A stretch of 21,220 nucleotides of DNA from a virus (Duplodnaviria; Heunggongvirae; Uroviricota; Caudoviricetes): the IMG/VR virus record IMGVR_UViG_2547132274_000016, positions 1 through 21,220 of that record; one strand, written 5' to 3'. How positions within the stretch are numbered: the stretch's first letter is position 1; each line of letters starts with the position of its first letter. The position numbers and the translations under genes were made by a program. Shown here piece by piece: positions 1,093-11,331 of this stretch. The notes under the pieces were generated by a model, which saw nothing but the letters and a program-made list of their open reading frames with translations, was not told where the DNA came from and ran no database searches.

Positions 1093-2106
1093 TTACTCTA
1101 CTGTGGACACTGTGTGGACACTCTCGGCCTCAGTACCACCTCTTAGCGGATTAAGAGAAATGGCGTCCTGAAGGTACTCTGGCGCAAAATGAGCGTAAAC
1201 CATAGTTTGCTCAATCCGCGTGTGACCTAGTATCCGTTGTAGCGTGATAATACTTCCTCCATTAATCATGAAATGAGTGGCAAAGCTGTGCCTTAGTGCA
1301 TGTGTGGCTTGCCCCGTTGGCAAATCCGGTTTTATTGCTTTCATTGTTCGTCTGAAGCGAGGGTAATCAGCATCAGGGAATAAAAAACCTCGTTTGTTAT
1401 CCGCGATCATTTTGGCAACAGCCTCTGAGATCGGGACGGTGCGTGGTTTGTTTGTTTTCGTTTTAACAAACGTGACGCGGTTATGGATGATATTTTCTGC
1501 TTTCAAACGAGCTGCTTCTCCCCAACGTGCTCCAGTACTCAGGCAAAGAATCGCAATCTTTTTATTGTCGCCGTCAAGAGCAGCAAGCAGTAAGGCAATT
1601 TCTTCCTGCGTGAGATAGCCTGTGTCTGGTTTTTCCTCCTTAAGCCTTTTTGTCCCTCTGATAGGGTGCTCACCAAAGAATAACTCCGCTTCAATCAGGG
1701 CTGTAAACATGCCGCTAATACATGTTAAATCACGATTGATACTCGAAGGTTTAATACCCTGACTTCTTCGGGTGGCGCAGTACTGGCTGATAAGCGATTT
1801 CGTAATTTGAAATGCGCATGGGTCATTCGTTATTTTTGTGAAGATTTCAATTTTTCCAAGATTAGATTTCCCATGCTCTTCGTGTTTACCCTTTAAATCC
1901 CACCAGATCTGTGTCAGCTCCGACAGACGTCGCTTGTCTGTTGGTTTTGATAGCCATTCTTTATTGTGGTGGTTGTACAACGTGTATTTCTCGAAAGCGA
2001 CAGCTTCGCTTTTCTTATCAAACTTCCTACGGATGCGTTTTCCATTACGTCCAGTAGGGCGGATGTCCACTTCATATCGACCATCATCGAGTTTTTTGAT
2101 TGCCAT
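1093..2106 (-). CDS. int: Phage integrase, tyrosine recombinase (P2 Int-like)
   Basis: 337 aa; C-terminal catalytic region ...HALRHSFATHF...LGHTRIEQTMVYAHF with the conserved R, H-x-x-R and Y; adjacent to the att core. Confidence 0.95.
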   Translation of the reverse strand: MAIKKLDDGRYEVDIRPTGRNGKRIRRKFDKKSEAVAFEKYTLYNHHNKEWLSKPTDKRRLSELTQIWWDLKGKHEEHGKSNLGKIEIFTKITNDPCAFQITKSLISQYCATRRSQGIKPSSINRDLTCISGMFTALIEAELFFGEHPIRGTKRLKEEKPDTGYLTQEEIALLLAALDGDNKKIAILCLSTGARWGEAARLKAENIIHNRVTFVKTKTNKPRTVPISEAVAKMIADNKRGFLFPDADYPRFRRTMKAIKPDLPTGQATHALRHSFATHFMINGGSIITLQRILGHTRIEQTMVYAHFAPEYLQDAISLNPLRGGTEAESVHTVSTVE

Positions 2107-2221: not shown

Positions 2222-2521
2222 TTAACCAGTCTTTTGACCGGAGTGGGGCGACGTTGTTTCGTTTTGCCCAAAGTGTGCGAGAGCGGGCGCAATTTGCCCG
2301 GACTCAGGAGCGATCTGATTGGTCATGAACCATAAAGTGTATTTGGTGAATTGTGGGGTCTGCAGGATGTTCATCATGACATCTGTTGGAGGTGTTGAAC
2401 GACCACTTTCATAGTAACTCAGCGTGCCATACGGAACCCCTGTTAAATCAGCAAGTTGTTGTCTGCTCAAATACTCTGATTTTCGCATTAAGACTATCTT
2501 CTCGCTTATCGTGTTTGACAT
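2222..2521 (-). CDS. C: Immunity repressor C (P2 C-like, HTH)
   Basis: 99 aa, same length and position as P2 C; HTH segment LSRQQLADLTGVPYGTLSYYESG; divergent from cox. Confidence 0.85.
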   Translation of the reverse strand: MSNTISEKIVLMRKSEYLSRQQLADLTGVPYGTLSYYESGRSTPPTDVMMNILQTPQFTKYTLWFMTNQIAPESGQIAPALAHFGQNETTSPHSGQKTG

Positions 2522-2635: not shown

Positions 2636-2911
2636 ATGAGCAAGCAAGTAACACTCATGACTGATGCGATTCCTTATCAGGAGTTCGCAAAACTAATAGG
2701 AAAATCGACAGGAGCGGTTCGTCGGATGATCGATAAAGGAAAGCTGCCTGTAATTGATATGACCGATCCACAATCAGCTTCAGGTCGTGCAGGTGAATAT
2801 TGGGTATACCTTCCGGCATGGAATAACGGACTAAAACTGGCTTATGAAAGCCGCCCTAAAGAGATTCGTGACGGCTGGTTGATGTGGTTAGGTCTCGGTG
2901 AACCACGTTAA
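2636..2911 (+). CDS. cox: Cox (excisionase / repressor of Pc), P2 Cox-like
   Basis: 91 aa, first gene of the rightward early operon, same length and position as P2 Cox. Confidence 0.85.
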   Translation: MSKQVTLMTDAIPYQEFAKLIGKSTGAVRRMIDKGKLPVIDMTDPQSASGRAGEYWVYLPAWNNGLKLAYESRPKEIRDGWLMWLGLGEPR

Positions 2912-4403: not shown

Positions 4404-4675
4404 GTATTCGTATCGAAATTGGCGAACGTTATGTCGTTACCAGTGACAGCTTTCAGTTTATTCTCCACGAGAAAAAGAGAGCGGAAAGCGGTAAAAACGC
4501 CGGCCAGGAATGGCTGGCGGTGGTTGGTTATTACCCGAAATTAAGCCAGCTCGTTTCCGGCATGATGCATCACGATATTCTGACCGGAAGCGCAAAATCT
4601 TTTGCTGATTTAAACGCGCAGGTTGAGCAACTCAGCAAGCGTTGTTCAGAGGCTTTTGGCTCACATGGCCGTTAA
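4400..4675 (+). CDS. Small early hypothetical protein immediately upstream of A
   Basis: 91-aa ORF, 4-nt start overlap with previous gene, 3' end overlaps the A start. Confidence 0.5.
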   Translation: MSIRIEIGERYVVTSDSFQFILHEKKRAESGKNAGQEWLAVVGYYPKLSQLVSGMMHHDILTGSAKSFADLNAQVEQLSKRCSEAFGSHGR

Positions 4676-6950
4676 AGCCTCCGGGCGTTTTGTCCCTCCG
4701 TCAGCATTTGCCGCAGGCACCGGTAAGGCGTTTACCGGTGCTTATGCATGGAACGCGCCACGCGAGGCTGTCGGGCGCGAAAGACCCCTTACACGTGACG
4801 AGATGCGTCAGGTGCAAGGTGTTTTATCCACGATTAACCGCCTGCCTTACTTTTTGCGCTCGCTGTTTACTTCACGCTATGACTACATCCGGCGCAATAA
4901 AAGCCCGGTGCACGGGTTTTATTTCCTCACATCCACTTTTCAGCGTCGTTTATGGCCGCGCATTGAGCGTGTGAATCAGCGCCATGAAATGAACACCGAC
5001 GCGTCGTTGCTGTTTCTGGCAGAGCGTGACCACTATGCGCGCCTGCCGGGAATGAATGACAAGGAGCTGAAAAAGTTTGCTGCCCATATCTCATCGCAGC
5101 TTTTCATGATGTATGAGGAACTCTGCGATGCCTGGGTGGATGCGCATGGCGAAAAAGAATCGCTGTTTACGGATGAGGCGCAGGCACATCTGTATGGTCA
5201 TGTTGCTGGCGCTGCACGTGCTTTCAATATTTCCCCGCTTTACTGGAAAAAATACCGTAAAGGGCAGATGACCACGAGGCAGGCATATTCTGCCATTGCC
5301 CGCCTGTTTAACGATGAGTGGTGGACTCATCAGCTTAAAGGCCAGCGTATGCGCTGGCATGAGGCGTTACTGATTGCTGTCGGGGAGGTCAATAAAGACC
5401 GTTCTCCTTATGCCAGTAAACATGCCATTCGTGATGTGCGTGCGCGCCGCCAGGCAAATCTGGAATTTCTTAAATCGTGTGACCTTGAAAACAAGGAAAC
5501 CGGCGAGCGCATCGACCTTATCAGTAAGGTGATGGGCAGTATTTCTAATCCAGAAATTCGCCGGATGGAGCTGATGAACACCATCGCCGGTATTGAGCGT
5601 TACGCCGCCGCAGAGGGTGATGTGGGGATGTTTATCACGCTGACCGCGCCGTCAAAGTATCACCCGACACGTCAGGTCAGAAAAGGCGAAAGTAAAACCG
5701 TCCAGCTAAATCACGGCTGGAACGATGAGGCATTTAATCCAAAGGATGCGCAGCGTTATCTCTGCCGTATCTGGAGCCTGATGCGCACGGCATTCAAGGA
5801 TAATGATTTACAGGCCTACGGTTTGCGAGTCGTCGAGCCACACCACGACGGAACGCCGCACTGGCATATGATGCTTTTTTGTAATCCACGCCAGCGTAAC
5901 CAGATTATTGAAATCATGCGTCGCTATGCGCTCAAAGAGGATGGCGACGAAAGAGGAGCCGCGCGAAACCGTTTTCAGGCAAAACACCTTAACCGGGGCG
6001 GTGCTGCGGGATATATCGCGAAATACATCTCAAAAAACATCGACGGCTATGCACTGGATGGTCAGCTCGATAACGATACCGGCAGACCGCTGAAAGATAC
6101 TGCGGCGGCTGTTACCGCATGGGCGTCAACGTGGCGCATTCCGCAATTTAAAACGGTTGGTCTGCCGACAATGGGGGCTTACCGTGAACTACGCAAATTG
6201 CCTCGCGGCGTCAGCATTGCTGATGAGTTTGACGAGCGCGTCGAGGCTGCACGCGCCGCTGCAGACAGTGGTGATTTTGCGTTGTATATCAGCGCGCAGG
6301 GCGGGGCAAATGTCCCGCGCGATTGTCAGACTGTCAGGGTCGCCCGTAGCCCGTCGGATGACGTTAACGAGTACGAGGAAGAAGTCGAGAGAGTGGTCGG
6401 CATTTACGCGCCGCATCTCGGCGCGCGTCATATTCATATCACCAGAACGACGGACTGGCGCATTGTTCCGAAAGTGCCGGTCGTTGAGCCTTTGACTTTA
6501 AAAAGCGGCATCGCCGCGCCTCGGAGTCCTGTCAATAACTGTGGAAAGCTCACCGGTGGTGATACTTCGTTACCGGCTCCCACACCTTCTGAGCACGCCG
6601 CAGCAGTACTTAATCTGGTTGATGACGGTGTTATCGAATGGAATGACCAGGAGGTCGTGAAGGCGCTAAGGGGCGCATTAAAACACGGGCTGAGAACGCC
6701 AAATCGTCAGCAAAGAAACGGAAGCCCGTTAAAACCGCATGAAATTGCACCATCGGCCAGACTGACACGGTCGGAACGAATGCAAATTACCCGTATTCGC
6801 GTTGACCTCGCTCAGAACGGTATCAGGCCGCAGCGATGGGAGCTTGAGGCGCTGGCGCGTGGCGCGACCGTAAATTATGACGGGAAAAAATTCACGTATC
6901 CGGTCGCTGATGAGTGGCCGGGATTCTCAACAGTAATGGAGTGGACATGA
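4665..6950 (+). CDS. A: Replication initiation endonuclease A (rolling-circle nickase, P2 gpA-like)
   Basis: 761 aa from MAVKASGRF (track ORF starts 14 codons earlier); contains the HxH metal motif region ...EPHHDGTPHWHMMLF...; length equals P2 A. Confidence 0.9.
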   Translation: MAVKASGRFVPPSAFAAGTGKAFTGAYAWNAPREAVGRERPLTRDEMRQVQGVLSTINRLPYFLRSLFTSRYDYIRRNKSPVHGFYFLTSTFQRRLWPRIERVNQRHEMNTDASLLFLAERDHYARLPGMNDKELKKFAAHISSQLFMMYEELCDAWVDAHGEKESLFTDEAQAHLYGHVAGAARAFNISPLYWKKYRKGQMTTRQAYSAIARLFNDEWWTHQLKGQRMRWHEALLIAVGEVNKDRSPYASKHAIRDVRARRQANLEFLKSCDLENKETGERIDLISKVMGSISNPEIRRMELMNTIAGIERYAAAEGDVGMFITLTAPSKYHPTRQVRKGESKTVQLNHGWNDEAFNPKDAQRYLCRIWSLMRTAFKDNDLQAYGLRVVEPHHDGTPHWHMMLFCNPRQRNQIIEIMRRYALKEDGDERGAARNRFQAKHLNRGGAAGYIAKYISKNIDGYALDGQLDNDTGRPLKDTAAAVTAWASTWRIPQFKTVGLPTMGAYRELRKLPRGVSIADEFDERVEAARAAADSGDFALYISAQGGANVPRDCQTVRVARSPSDDVNEYEEEVERVVGIYAPHLGARHIHITRTTDWRIVPKVPVVEPLTLKSGIAAPRSPVNNCGKLTGGDTSLPAPTPSEHAAAVLNLVDDGVIEWNDQEVVKALRGALKHGLRTPNRQQRNGSPLKPHEIAPSARLTRSERMQITRIRVDLAQNGIRPQRWELEALARGATVNYDGKKFTYPVADEWPGFSTVMEWT

Positions 6951-7402
6951 TGGCAAAAATTCACGAGGTAAAGCTGCACGCAAAATATTTCGACCTTGTG
7001 CTGGAAGGAAAGAAACGCGCAGAGTTTCGGAAAAATGACCGTAATTATGAGCGCGGGGACACGTTGATTTTGCATGAATGGGTGCAGGGTGTGTACACGG
7101 GGCGAAAGGTTGAAGCCCGGATAACAGATGTTACTGACCTGTCAGACTGGCTGGAAGATTATGTATTGCTAAGTATTGAGCTGCTTAATACAGGCACATA
7201 TGAGATTGTGAACTGGAAAGAACTTAGTGAGCGTGGTCTGGTATTCAGAATTAATCATGAAATTATGCATCAGCTCGGCCTTGCTGTTATGTATGAACCA
7301 GAGACGGGGATGTCTGGCGGGGCAATGGTTGCCATGGATGGAGCATGGAACTATTCAGATGAACAGATGGAGCGTGCACAGCAAAACGGGTGGCTTGGAT
7401 AA
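6947..7402 (+). CDS. DUF3850/ASCH-like (PUA-fold) domain protein, cargo gene 1
   Basis: Start ATG overlaps the A stop (ATGA); N-terminal ~70 aa (KIHEVKLHAKYFDLVLEGKKRAEFRKNDRNYERGDTLILHEW) resembles ASCH/DUF3850 domains; assignment from motif memory only. Confidence 0.55.
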   Translation: MMAKIHEVKLHAKYFDLVLEGKKRAEFRKNDRNYERGDTLILHEWVQGVYTGRKVEARITDVTDLSDWLEDYVLLSIELLNTGTYEIVNWKELSERGLVFRINHEIMHQLGLAVMYEPETGMSGGAMVAMDGAWNYSDEQMERAQQNGWLG

Positions 7403-7608
7403 TGCACAGAATACCAGGCGAGATACCGCACCATAAAACTAAAAATATCAAGCTGATGGCTATTGTTCAGCGTTTACAGCGGATTATGGTCAACGAAAAT
7501 CTGACGCCAGATGAGCTAGTCGGGTGTGCCGAAATAGTCCGGGATAATTACGGGCGGTTTAACCATATCGGTCAATCAAGAGTTACGCCACCACCACGCA
7601 GACGATAG
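7402..7608 (+). CDS. Small hypothetical protein, cargo gene 2
   Basis: 68-aa ORF whose ATG overlaps the upstream TAA (TAATG); basic C-terminus (PPPRRR); no recognisable domain. Confidence 0.4.
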   Translation: MHRIPGEIPHHKTKNIKLMAIVQRLQRIMVNENLTPDELVGCAEIVRDNYGRFNHIGQSRVTPPPRRR

Positions 7609-7837
7609 AGAACGCCGCCAGTCGTGAAACTTGTTTTCAGGGCTGGCGGGGTTGAACAACGAGCGAAGCGAGGCGTTAGTTGACAGTCATATTTTTACTG
7701 CGTTGGTGCTGGTTTTTGACGGTTGAAAGGAGTTAGCTCGGAGAGCTAAAGCTAACAACTTACAAATATTCAAAAGTAAGCTTCCTGTTGCTAACATAAG
7801 GTCGATTTTTTATGTGGATGATGCAAAAAGGATAGCT

Positions 7838-8569
7838 ATGGATATTGTAATCGCTTTTCTATCACTCGCTTTTTTCGTTGCTTTTTTCATCGGGTTAATC
7901 AAGCCATCACTGGTGCGGATGCCAAACCGTAAACGTGCAAGTGCGGTTTATCTCGGAGGTGGTTTTGCATTGAGCATAATTGGTTCAATACTCTACCCAA
8001 CAGAAAAAAGCCAGCCAGTTGCTAAAACTGAAACAGCAACCGTAGCAGAACACCAGGCTCAAAAAACATTCGAATATACTGAAAAAACACTCAAGGAATA
8101 TCGGAACGAGCCAAAGAAGACTCGACACGATATTGTGAATAGTTACATTAACTTTAAGAAAGTGCCAGTCACCGCATCAGATGCATTTTATGCCTGCATG
8201 AGTGAGTATACATTTACCAAAGATGATGAGTTGAAACTCGGTGATGTTCTTGGGTGGTGCTTTAATGATTATGAAAATGACCCGAATTCACTAAACAATA
8301 AAATCAATCTTGATACATTTCAGAGCAATTTTAGTGGTTGGGATGGTTCTTATCGTCCATTGGAAAAACTAATTAAAGATAATATGAACGATGATTCATC
8401 TTATAAACATGTGTCAACGGTATATCATTTGGTTTTGAATAAAGACCCGCACGCCATTGTGAAAACCACATTTCGTGGCACTAATGCTTATGGAGGAGTA
8501 GTTAAACAGACTATTGCTGCGCGTGTCGACATCCGAACGGGCGAAGTCGTTTCAGTATTAGATAACTAA
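7838..8569 (+). CDS. Membrane-anchored hypothetical protein (two N-terminal TM helices plus ~175-aa soluble domain), cargo gene 3
   Basis: AAGGA RBS 5 nt before the ATG at 7838 (track ORF from GTG 7814); hydrophobic stretches IVIAFLSLAFFVAFFIGLI and AVYLGGGFALSIIGSIL; AT-rich codon usage unlike the phage backbone. Confidence 0.6.
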   Translation: MDIVIAFLSLAFFVAFFIGLIKPSLVRMPNRKRASAVYLGGGFALSIIGSILYPTEKSQPVAKTETATVAEHQAQKTFEYTEKTLKEYRNEPKKTRHDIVNSYINFKKVPVTASDAFYACMSEYTFTKDDELKLGDVLGWCFNDYENDPNSLNNKINLDTFQSNFSGWDGSYRPLEKLIKDNMNDDSSYKHVSTVYHLVLNKDPHAIVKTTFRGTNAYGGVVKQTIAARVDIRTGEVVSVLDN

Positions 8570-8572
8570 TCG

Positions 8573-8634
8573 TTGATGCCGTATTGACACTTGTTATACT
8601 AGTGGTGGAACGAGACTGTAATAGTCTGTTCCAC
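8573..8634 (+). promoter_or_regulatory. Candidate sigma70 promoter (TTGATG-16 bp-TGtTATACT) followed by a 30-bp imperfect palindrome (operator or 5'-UTR hairpin)
   Basis: -35-like TTGATG 8573..8578, extended -10 TGTTATACT 8592..8600; palindrome GTGGAACgagACTgtaatAGTctgTTCCAC 8605..8634 directly downstream; GAGGGA RBS at 8673. Confidence 0.35.
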
Positions 8635-8681
8635 TACAGGAGTAATTACCTTGACTGTAAGTTGCTTTTATTGAGGGAACT

Positions 8682-9971
8682 ATGAAGTTTAAGACTGAAT
8701 TGAGTCGAAAATTGCATGACTCGGTAGTGTTTGATTTGAAAAAAGACCTGGTAAAATTAGAGGGAAACCTAAAAAATACAGATTTGTTGTTGTCGTTTCA
8801 GTTCAAAATAATAAGGAATATAATTAGAAGTGAAAGGATGATCAAAGAATTAAAGTCTTTCTTAGGGGAACTAAAGGCAACAAAAAGAAAAGGTGGTTTA
8901 AAAAAAGAACAATCTAAACTTATTAAGGAAAATATTAAGAGTGTTGAGCAGGGTATTGATGATGTGAAATTTAAAATATATATCTTCAAAATGTTTGGTG
9001 ATAGTGTTGCTTTTTTGTATTTGGATAAGTTTGATATTAAGCATTTTTTTTATAATGTTGTGGATTACAGTCCCAAGGAGTCAGCGGGCTATATGGGAGG
9101 GAAGGATGGCTTAAAAGAAGAATGGGAATTGGTGAAGAAGGCCTGCAAGGCTGGTGTTCCTACGTTACTCAATGATATTACAATGAGTATGAGGCATGGT
9201 GATGTTTGTTTACTTGGTGAAGGTGCACCAGTACTGGTGGAGGTGAAATCAAGTCAAAATAAAAATGATCGTGTTGAACGTCAAAAAAATAACCTTAATA
9301 GACTAGCTGAATTTTTAGCAGAAGATAAAGCTGAAGATTTTAGAGGGATGCCATTAGTGTTAAGGAAAGAACTGTGTTTTTCAGAAGTTACATATAAAAA
9401 AGAATTTAATGAGCATCTGAATGTATGCAGGAAAAAAGGAATTTCATGGGTAAGGCTAGAAGATGGATTTTATGTGGTATCTAATCGTGGCTGTGATCTG
9501 GAAATAGCATTATCACAGTTGGATCTTAGAGGGAGGAAAATTGCACCTATATTTTTGAATGAATATAAAAATAATCAATTGTGGGTTCCTTTAACTCCGT
9601 TTGTTAATCTTATAAATGATGCGCGTGATTTGTGTGACTTTATAAATGGGGAGTTAACTATTCTCTGTGTTCTTGATTTGGATTGTTTTAAACAAATAGC
9701 TTTGAATGAAGGGTTTGAGCTTGTTTTTGTCGATGGTGAAGACTATTCGATGATATTTAAAGAATTTGGTAGCTCATTGATTTGGGGTGTGTCATGGCAA
9801 ATGATGCTTCGCACTCCTTTAGAAATGGTGTCAATGTCTTGGTTAATTAAAGATTCAATTGATAGATTTAAGCGTTTACAAAAGCAACATGCTGAGATGC
9901 AGCCTGTCACTGATGTTAATACATCCGAAACCTCCTTGTTTGAAAAATATAGGCCTCTTTTTACAAAGTAG
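8682..9971 (+). CDS. Hypothetical protein with PD-(D/E)xK-like nuclease motif, cargo gene 4
   Basis: 429 aa, strong RBS; K/E-rich N-terminal region, then GD(174)-x12-VLVE(187)VK(189) resembling the PD-(D/E)xK catalytic core; no P-loop; very AT-rich. Confidence 0.6.
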   Translation: MKFKTELSRKLHDSVVFDLKKDLVKLEGNLKNTDLLLSFQFKIIRNIIRSERMIKELKSFLGELKATKRKGGLKKEQSKLIKENIKSVEQGIDDVKFKIYIFKMFGDSVAFLYLDKFDIKHFFYNVVDYSPKESAGYMGGKDGLKEEWELVKKACKAGVPTLLNDITMSMRHGDVCLLGEGAPVLVEVKSSQNKNDRVERQKNNLNRLAEFLAEDKAEDFRGMPLVLRKELCFSEVTYKKEFNEHLNVCRKKGISWVRLEDGFYVVSNRGCDLEIALSQLDLRGRKIAPIFLNEYKNNQLWVPLTPFVNLINDARDLCDFINGELTILCVLDLDCFKQIALNEGFELVFVDGEDYSMIFKEFGSSLIWGVSWQMMLRTPLEMVSMSWLIKDSIDRFKRLQKQHAEMQPVTDVNTSETSLFEKYRPLFTK

Positions 9972-10108
9972 TCAGATGCTGTAGGTGTATATGCTATTGC
10001 ATTAATTTGCATGCAAAACAAGTAGAGGTAAAAACTCTTACAGGCTGCTTGGGGGATAGCTTTTGAATGCTAATGCATTTGCATTCAAATTGCCCCACGA
10101 AGCGGGCG

Positions 10109-10127
10109 GGCGAGGCGGGGAAAGCAC
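10109..10127. other. Candidate cos cohesive-end sequence (GGCGAGGCGGGGAAAGCAC)
   Basis: GC-rich non-coding stretch between cargo and Q, where cos lies in a P2 prophage; 19-mer matches my recollection of the P2 cohesive end (to be verified). Confidence 0.5.
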
Positions 10128-10269
10128 TGCGCGCTGGCGGTGGTGCTGATTTTATTTTTTCAGCGTCTGAGCGCGTCGTGGCAGCGTTTAGTCTGCCCGT
10201 TGGGGTGTTGGTGTGTCTGCGGGGTATTTTGTGCGGTGGTGAGCGTGTGAGGGCGTGATGACGGGATGT

Positions 10270-10291
10270 AAAAAAGCCGCCCGCAGGCGGC
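10270..10291 (-). terminator. Intrinsic terminator downstream of Q (end of P-Q operon)
   Basis: GC hairpin GCCGCC-cgca-GGCGGC (10276..10291) followed on the minus strand by a U-run (A-run 10270..10275 on plus strand), 5 nt after the Q stop. Confidence 0.55.
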
Positions 10292-10296
10292 GATGT

Positions 10297-11331
10297 TCAG
10301 CCGTTGTCAGTGTCCAGTGAGTAGTTTTTAAAGCGGATGACCTCCTGACCGAGCCAGCCGTTTATTTCCCGAATCCTGTCCTGTAACGGGATAAGCTCAT
10401 TGCGGACAAAGACCTTTGCCACTTTCTCAATATCGCCCAGTGACCCGACGTTCTCCGGCTTGCCGCCCATCAACTGAAAGGGGATGCGGTGCGCGTCCAG
10501 CAGGTCTGCGGCGCTGGCTTTTTTGATATTAAAAAAATCATCCTTCGTTGCCACTTCACTGAGCGGGATAATTTTAATGCCGTCGGCTTTCCCCTGTGGG
10601 GCATAGAGAAACAGATTTTTAAAGTTATTGCGGCCTTTCGACTTCACCATGTTTTCGCGGAGCATTTCGATATCGTTGCGATCCTGCACGGCATCGGTGA
10701 CGTACATGATGTATCCGGCATGTGCGCCGTTTTCGTAATACTTGCGGCGGAACAGCGTGGCTGATTCATTCAGCCAGGCAGAGTTAAGGGCGCTGAGATA
10801 TTCCGGCAGGCCGTACAGCTCCTGATTAATATCCGGCTCCAGCAGGTGAAACACGGAACCGGGCGCGAAGGCTGTCGGCTCGTTGAAGGACGGCACCCAC
10901 CAGTAAACATCCTCTTCCACACCACGGCGGGTATATTTTGCCGGTGAGATTTCCAGTCTGATGACCTTACCGGTGGTGCTGTAACGCTTTTCCAGAAACG
11001 CATTACCGAACACCAGAAAATCCAGCACAAAGCGGCTGAAATCCTACTGGGAAAGCCACGGATGCGGGATAAATGTCGAGGCCAGAATATTACGTTTGAC
11101 GTAAATCGGTGAGCTGTGATGTACGGCAGCACGCAGGCTTTTTGCCAGACCGGTAAAGCTGATCGGTGGCTCATACCATCTGCCGTTACTGATGCACTCG
11201 ACGTAATCCAGAATGTCACGGCGGTCGAGTACCGGCACCGGCTCACCAAAGGTGAATGCCTCCATTTTCGGGGCGCTGGCGGTCATTTTTTTTGCCGCAG
11301 GTTGCGGTGTTTTCCCTTTTTTCTTGCTCAT
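10297..11331 (-). pseudogene. Q: Portal protein gpQ interrupted by one in-frame TAG codon at 11044..11046
   Basis: Two ORFs (11044..11331, 95 aa; 10297..11028, 243 aa) are in the same frame and separated only by TAG; together ~344 codons as in P2 Q; reading through gives ...PWLSQ*DFSRFVLDFLVF... Confidence 0.6.

Follow-up and report, generated by a model that had tools for sequence, protein, structure and literature searches.

Comparison with described systems

The element described here (positions 8573-8637) lies in a 21,220-nt stretch of virus DNA (IMG/VR record IMGVR_UViG_2547132274_000016, positions 1 to 21,220), referred to below as the window. Parts of this locus resemble several described systems. 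In phage 186, orf97 is located within the LexA-controlled p95 operon (p95 - tum - t95a - orf97 - t95b; U32222), and the 186 record annotates this gene with the statement "expression from plasmid blocks 186 infection". The window resembles the 3' region of this SOS operon in having an orf97 homologue, a cos-side position and hairpins right after the stop codon. It differs from 186 in three respects: the conserved hairpin that follows orf97 (the boundary hairpin discussed below) appears decayed and its replacement has no U tract, an extra cargo gene and a promoter-like motif are inserted before cos, and neither tum nor a LexA box was seen upstream of the window orf97.

Swappable anti-phage cargo occupies the gpA-to-portal hotspot of P2-like phages, and systems from this hotspot work when cloned with their native promoters (PMC9122126, PMC13586616). 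The spacers of the hotspot have been described as remnants of intense recombination (PMC13586616). The window shares with the P2 old/tin and P2/P4 defense hotspots (Rousset et al. 2022, PMC9122126; PMC13586616) the same locus between gpA and portal Q beside cos, low-G+C foreign-looking DNA, a cargo promoter (predicted here) and homologues in the P4 psu-int hotspot. Unlike the systems described from these hotspots, the 429-aa protein encoded by its cargo gene has no match in PADLOC, Pfam or NCBIfam, and its family is missing from all three.

Other likenesses are to individual regulatory elements. The ompA 5' untranslated region (UTR) has a stable hairpin at the first transcribed base, as does the window if transcription starts where predicted, but the window hairpin is not conserved with its gene and has no sequence or family relation to that of ompA. 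Lac-type operators have a dyad just downstream of the -10 hexamer, whereas the comparable site in the window has no cognate regulator or further sites, has asymmetric arms and is unconserved. Intrinsic terminators similarly place a stable stem-loop soon after a stop codon, and true terminators occupy this slot in some relatives. The window stem differs from these in its lack of a U tract and its few G-C pairs (7/15).

Prophage setting and the orf97 homologue

The window is a P2-like prophage located beside the host gene yegS. This assignment follows from the presence of gpA, C, Cox, integrase, portal, terminase and gpO (Table 1); portal Q, terminase P and scaffold O are all recognizable. The element is situated in the gpA-to-portal ('old/tin') cargo hotspot next to cos, between the orf97 homologue and the 429-aa gene. 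Across 7650-10050, the G+C content falls from approximately 55% to 29-41%. This low-G+C island ends at a cohesive-end sequence that we take to be P2 cos.

Table 1. Coordinates of the features of the window discussed in the text
Feature	Position	Strand	Remarks
Integrase	1093-2106	-	
C repressor	2222-2521	-	only HTH protein found; 6 kb from the palindrome
Cox	2636-2911		
Replication protein A (gpA)	4623-6950		
DUF3850/ASCH protein	6914-7402		
Conserved boundary stem-loop (7611-7653) plus tail GTTGAACAACGAGC-N5-GCGAGGCGTTAG	7611-7680	+	intact copy upstream of orf97
Orf97 homologue (phrog_3403), membrane protein	7838-8569	+	RefSeq start
-35-like hexamer TTGATG	8573-8578	+	4/6 consensus; invariant across 13 close copies
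Probable decayed boundary hairpin copy	8577-8608	+	26/32 identities to the L111 copy after the closest orf97 relative
Substitution C>T	8588		within the putative promoter spacer
Extended -10 TGtTATACT	8592-8600	+	TG 8592-8593, TATACT 8595-8600; -10 5/6; predicted start ~8607
Stem-loop	8602-8637	+	core palindrome 8605-8617/8623-8634, bulged G8612, loop 8618-8622
Outer pairs of stem-loop	8602-8604/8635-8637	+	lost in most copies
Substitution A>G	8610		stem, one copy; A-U to G-U, pairing kept
Substitution T>C	8619		loop; window is the odd one out
Substitution T>A	8635		9/12 other copies; outer G-U (wobble) pair broken, core palindrome alone kept
Shine-Dalgarno GAGGG of the 429-aa gene	8673-8677	+	GAGG kept in relatives
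429-aa gene (phrog_14906)	8682-9971	+	N-terminal helical hairpin, then alpha/beta region
cos cohesive-end sequence GGCGAGGCGGGGAAAGCAC (19 nt)	10109-10127	+	right limit of the cargo region

Homologues of orf97 precede many different cargo genes. In a survey of 50 P2-like IMG/VR contigs, each with an orf97 homologue, the sequences downstream of orf97 formed 21 unrelated clusters. Whatever the cargo, a hairpin of -15 kcal/mol or lower was found within 110 nt past the orf97 stop in 46/50 contigs and 19/21 clusters, in most cases 5-30 nt beyond the stop. At least 12 clusters share one conserved element in this position, whereas loci L115, L139, L150 and L159 have a canonical terminator there. In phage 186, the conserved element comes straight after orf97 and the annotated terminator t95b is 24 nt further on.

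Two side observations were made on the right side of the cargo region. A near-perfect 28-bp palindrome, TTTGAATGCTAATGCATTTGCATTCAAA, is located at 10062-10089, approximately 20 nt left of cos, and overlaps the start of a small open reading frame (ORF; 10067-10258, phrog_17350). The portal gene Q (10297-11331, - strand) has an in-frame stop at codon 96 (11044-11046), after ...PHPWLSQ. Its length is normal (345 codons, 344 sense plus stop) and it is intact in related prophages; the in-frame stop indicates either a defective prophage or a sequencing error.

The promoter-like motif

The layout described in the earlier note, with TTGATG, a 16-bp gap, TGtTATACT and a 30-bp palindrome, is present at the positions given in Table 1. 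The sequence has the features of a sigma-70 extended -10 promoter: TGn and a -10 hexamer close to TATAAT, with a 16-bp spacer between TTGATG and the TG-containing element. For promoters of this type, a -35-like hexamer at 16-18 bp is helpful but optional. The site scored 9/12 plus TG in a promoter scan. Promoter-like matches in general are at chance level in this region (11 seen in 7000-11000, 8.9 expected). For the pattern TGNTATAMT, the two strands of the 21-kb window contain a single match (0.55 expected), which sits in the 112-bp spacer in the correct orientation, 82 nt upstream of the ATG. The extended -10 sigma-70 promoter proposed in the earlier note is a reasonable and plausible call as a consensus match, and the motif is unique in the window. 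The start expected from the -10 hexamer would fall within the 5' arm of the hairpin.

Both hexamers are invariant solely within the lineage of copies that are 97-99% identical, and their conservation fails in diverged relatives. At loci encoding 68-70% identical proteins, a deletion has removed the -35 region, and the 400 nt upstream yielded no consensus promoter, which argues that a promoter at this position is not a conserved need of the 429-aa gene.

Other promoter candidates were rejected. A perfect -35 hexamer, TTGACA, at 8584-8589 has no -10 at 16-18 bp and reads TTGATA in 4 copies; it resembles what would be left of the earlier hairpin arm, CTGAAA. A sigma-54 candidate, TGGAACG-N4-TGTA, lacks the -12 GC element, as judged by eye. 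An antisense candidate (8845-8817) belongs to the chance-level set of scan matches.

The stem-loop

The palindrome (8605-8634) is 30 bp long and imperfect. Its left arm is GTGGAACGAGACT (8605-8617, 13 nt) and its right arm is AGTCTGTTCCAC (8623-8634, 12 nt), with G8612 as the extra base and GTAAT (8618-8622) as the loop. In RNA, the pairing reaches 8602-8637 and forms a 15-16-bp stem-loop of -20.6 kcal/mol. G-C pairs account for only 7 of the 15 standard pairs, to which one possible G-U closing pair is added. Folding of the RNA, a check suggested in the earlier note, thus revealed a strong hairpin well past chance (z = -6.3, mononucleotide shuffles of a 46-nt segment). Among all 40-nt folds of the + strand of the window it ranks fifth (top 0.085%), although its surroundings have a G+C content of approximately 35-40%. 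As DNA, the palindrome has an energy of -11.6 kcal/mol (z = -4.4; 0/200 shuffles as good).

The hairpin is located 33 nt past the orf97 stop and 44 nt before the ATG of the next gene, leaving the Shine-Dalgarno sequence untouched. A transcript from the predicted start at ~8607 would carry a shortened hairpin (~11 bp, -11 kcal/mol) at its extreme 5' end, with no unpaired leader.

The stem is followed by the tail AGGAGUAA, which contains no U tract, and the terminator scan made no call at this site. A canonical intrinsic terminator is ruled out on this basis, and intrinsic termination at a stem lacking such a tract is not expected to be efficient. No part of the window matches Rfam 15 at gathering thresholds, and a search of 7500-8750 at E <=10 gave chance-level matches only. 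No tRNA or tmRNA was found. An integron attC-like site was also rejected: GTGGAAC/GTTCCAC agrees with RYYYAAC/GTTRRRY at only 5/7 positions, a 30-bp site falls well below the required length and the window encodes no integron integrase.

Between the stem-loop and the 429-aa gene (8638-8675), AGGAG (8638-8642) is followed after 9 nt by TTG (8652) and a 7-codon ORF, MTVSCFY*, the stop of which overlaps the Shine-Dalgarno sequence of the 429-aa gene. A leader peptide reading of this segment was rejected, as the frame differs in L006 and L007 and is not conserved. L092 has a short ORF that resembles it (MVYICFFW*), and L006 and L007 have none. The ORF at 8652 is probably due to chance.

Distribution and variation of the spacer

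The 112-bp spacer is present in 17 of 5,426 complete E. coli genomes, every time with the 429-aa gene, and was found nowhere else in these genomes even at E <=10. In IMG/VR, the palindrome pattern occurs in only two contigs, both with the same cassette. The window itself, including the immunity (C/Cox) region, contains no second copy or half-site of the palindrome. Both motifs are exceptional and exclusive to this cassette. The earlier note had suggested looking for the palindrome elsewhere; neither the E. coli genomes nor IMG/VR yielded a second copy beyond the same cassette, and a dispersed operator, repeat or regulon can be rejected.

Thirteen close copies (97-99% identical) with intact orf97 were compared, and all 13 keep the hairpin. 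Four spacer positions vary among them (8588, 8610, 8619 and 8635; Table 1). With 4 variable sites in the 112-nt spacer and 38 in the 1290-nt gene, the variation is too shallow for selection to be inferred.

The loci encoding 68-70% identical proteins (L006, L007, L092 and L096) have a homologous spacer, with orf97 cut to its last ~50 nt. The remnant lies at 2838-2887 in L006 and L007 and at ~2850-2905 in L092 (VAAHMDLRTGNVVSI* versus AARVDIRTGEVVSVLDN*). Its presence indicates joint inheritance of the orf97 3' end, spacer and gene, with orf97 being deleted later. In these relatives, the segment homologous to the hairpin does not fold better than shuffled sequence (z-scores of -1.3 to +0.6, compared to -4.7 to -6.3 in the window lineage); L007 retains a rudiment of 8 bp that includes one mismatch. 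In the homologues carried by P4-like satellites, the spacer is of another kind: it contains a conserved TTGCGA-17-TATTAT promoter but lacks a hairpin. Because the hairpin is absent from both groups, it does not travel with the 429-aa gene. The 429-aa cassettes compared represent only three independent lineages, two of them without the hairpin.

A conserved hairpin at the cargo boundary

The conserved element found after orf97, here called the boundary hairpin, consists of a 19-bp covarying stem, the loop region GAAACTTGTTTTC and a tail (Table 1). Among 20 distinct copies, 93.4% of the cells in the stem pair and 9/19 pairs show compensatory changes (0/500 shuffles match). A total of 67 phage records contain the hairpin, among them those of P2, 186, PSP3 and phages that infect Klebsiella, Erwinia and Yersinia. 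The copy upstream of orf97 in the window is a full member and the strongest hairpin in the window. Further copies are located in L111 (2275-2345 and 3245-3318) and phage 186 (U32222, 30344-30412). The element has no U tract, has no Rfam match and is unannotated in 186.

Many relatives have a second copy after orf97, such that this gene is bracketed by direct repeats. Homology between phages stops right after the tail of the boundary hairpin, where the variable cargo starts. Because of this bracketing and the end of homology at the 3' tail, the boundary element could mediate cassette exchange. A tentative and fairly unlikely proposal is that hairpin and tail form the cassette-junction element of the P2-like hotspot, via which defense cassettes are swapped; in that role, the element could be a homology anchor, a recombination site or an RNA-processing site.

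In the window, the segment 8577-8608 is probably a decayed copy of the boundary hairpin that usually follows orf97, a call to which the alignment lends moderate support. The inner part of the element aligns (window GCC-GTATTGACACTTGTTATACTAGTGGTGG; L111 GCCAGTACTGAAACTTGTT-TTC-AGTGCTGG), and the two segments are equally far from the orf97 stop. Only 2/500 shuffles reach the alignment score, although the aligned stretch is short and not all of the 11 targets compared gave a significant match. The segment keeps 26/32 inner bases, while the pairing and tail are lost. L006 and L007 retain a different piece of the boundary element (GCTGGCGGAGG versus GCTGGCGGGGT).

The downstream 429-aa gene

A search of 5.8 billion proteins identified 25 relatives of the 429-aa protein, and a pattern scan of species genomes identified 89 distant ones. 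The motif G173-D174 ... E187-x-K189 (GD...ExK) is invariant in 23 homologues. In the confident AlphaFold model (pLDDT 88.7), a long helical hairpin at the N terminus leads into an alpha/beta region, and the structure matches are mostly generic helical bundles. The hallmark of PD-(D/E)xK nucleases is a catalytic D...(D/E)xK motif carried by an alpha/beta core of the restriction-endonuclease type; the 429-aa protein, called nuclease-like in the earlier note, is at most a candidate for this group.

Homologues with ~50% identity are encoded between psu and integrase of P4-like satellites, the satellite defense hotspot, where orf97 is absent and the gene has its own TTGCGA-17-TATTAT promoter. Presence in both the P2 and P4 hotspots makes an anti-phage role plausible by association, and the 429-aa gene is a candidate single-gene defense system. 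Members of the family are found at 8682-9971 in the window, 3222-4511 in L094 and 3001-4293 in L090. In P4-like satellites, the 429-aa homologue lies beside a convergent 457-aa gene without a Pfam match. In one of the 17 E. coli genomes with the spacer (LR-45, NZ_AP027532.1, 2750009-2752840), an IS3-family element splits the 429-aa gene at approximately window position 9035.

The earlier note had proposed that this gene is transcribed and regulated independently of the upstream membrane-protein gene, as would be expected for a tightly controlled toxic effector. The first part of this claim is plausible in that the gene behaves as a separate module: the cargo after orf97 varies, and the P4 homologues have their own promoter and no orf97. 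Regulation through an operator is not supported, and neither is the idea of a toxic effector.

Proposed model and alternative explanations

The preferred explanation, held at about even confidence, is that the element is a junction of two accessory cassettes, in which a promoter has arisen on a hairpin relic and is combined with an RNA-level stem-loop. The model for this junction is as follows. An intact boundary hairpin would once have preceded the 429-aa cassette and then decayed. In the window lineage, the old loop would have mutated to TGtTATACT, and the old 3' arm would have become the 5' arm of a new hairpin. By pairing with a downstream segment, this arm would form the hairpin now present. 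From the promoter (8573-8600), the 429-aa cargo gene would be transcribed independently in the prophage state, a mode of expression that is general among hotspot genes. In read-through RNA from orf97, the full 15-16-bp hairpin would end or protect the 3' end of the orf97 message, acting either as a barrier to 3'-exonucleases or as a weak or factor-assisted terminator. It would thereby fill the slot held by a hairpin or terminator after orf97 in nearly all relatives. In RNA starting at ~8607, the shortened 5'-terminal hairpin would slow 5'-end-dependent decay, as 5'-terminal stem-loops are known to slow the decay of mRNA.

In this model, promoter activity, the start site and the effect of the hairpin on RNA are what we infer from sequence. 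The hairpin co-occurs with intact orf97. The comparative pattern suggests that it belongs with the orf97 3' end and not with the gene that follows, a link for which the 429-aa cassette offers no more than three independent lineages. The bulged arms and the A8610G substitution, which permits a G-U pair only in + strand RNA, argue for a role in RNA rather than DNA.

The earlier note had favored a repressor operator. On such a reading, a dimeric DNA-binding protein bound to the palindrome (+1 to +28) would block a toxic gene until infection. The palindrome is strong and its position fits the expected start: the dyad lies just past the -10 hexamer with its center at ~+14, and lacO is likewise centered just downstream of the -10. 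The two-fold symmetry, however, is broken by one extra base in the left arm, and on duplex DNA the 13- and 12-nt arms throw the inner and outer half-sites out of register; a simple dimer would also usually occupy less than 30 bp. Neither a further copy nor a half-site turned up in the window (including the C/Cox region), in the 5,426 E. coli genomes at E <=10 or in IMG/VR outside the cassette. Neither Orf97 nor the 429-aa protein matches Pfam or NCBIfam, and no DNA-binding domain was detected in either. The palindrome is moreover lost in the nearest relatives with an intact gene. With a bulged dyad that does not travel with the gene, and with neither further sites nor a regulator domain, the operator reading finds no support in the comparison and is very improbable.

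The alternative raised in the same note, a 5'-UTR hairpin, comes nearer than the operator. As an explanation of the whole element, it would have the terminal hairpin stabilize the 429-aa mRNA or tune its translation, with no role for orf97. Stem-loops of the ompA type stabilize E. coli mRNAs from the 5' terminus, and with the predicted start at 8607 the transcript would open directly with the hairpin, leaving no unpaired leader. The hairpin is nevertheless missing, with the gene present, in the 68-70% relatives and the ~50% identical P4-borne homologues, and its presence follows orf97, to the 3' end of which the comparative pattern assigns it. At 44 nt from the ATG, it is also clear of the Shine-Dalgarno sequence. 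A purely 5'-UTR function is therefore rather unlikely. Still less expected is a neutral relic, in which palindrome and promoter-like motif are functionless by-products of the decay or rearrangement of a boundary hairpin at a recombination junction. This improbable reading agrees with the alignment of the region to a decayed boundary hairpin, with the description of hotspot spacers as remnants of intense recombination (PMC13586616) and with the lack of excess conservation among the close copies. Drift, however, is very unlikely to produce or preserve a 15-bp stem with one bulge (z -4.4 to -6.3); the new 3' arm lies outside the old element, and the sole stem substitution seen keeps the pairing.

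Significance

Taken alone, the element is an ordinary pair of cis-elements at a gene junction, a likely promoter plus an RNA hairpin, and changes little. It marks the start of a rare, uncharacterized single-gene cassette found in the P2 and P4 anti-phage hotspots, and its spacer appears to derive from the decay of a structured element that is widely conserved at the hotspot boundary. If the boundary hairpin does serve as a cassette junction, then 8573-8637 would show such a junction recycled into a promoter plus a new hairpin. The boundary element may help to explain the rapid exchange of cargo, a point left open by the hotspot survey (PMC13586616). The leads worth following are this boundary hairpin and the 429-aa family common to both hotspots.
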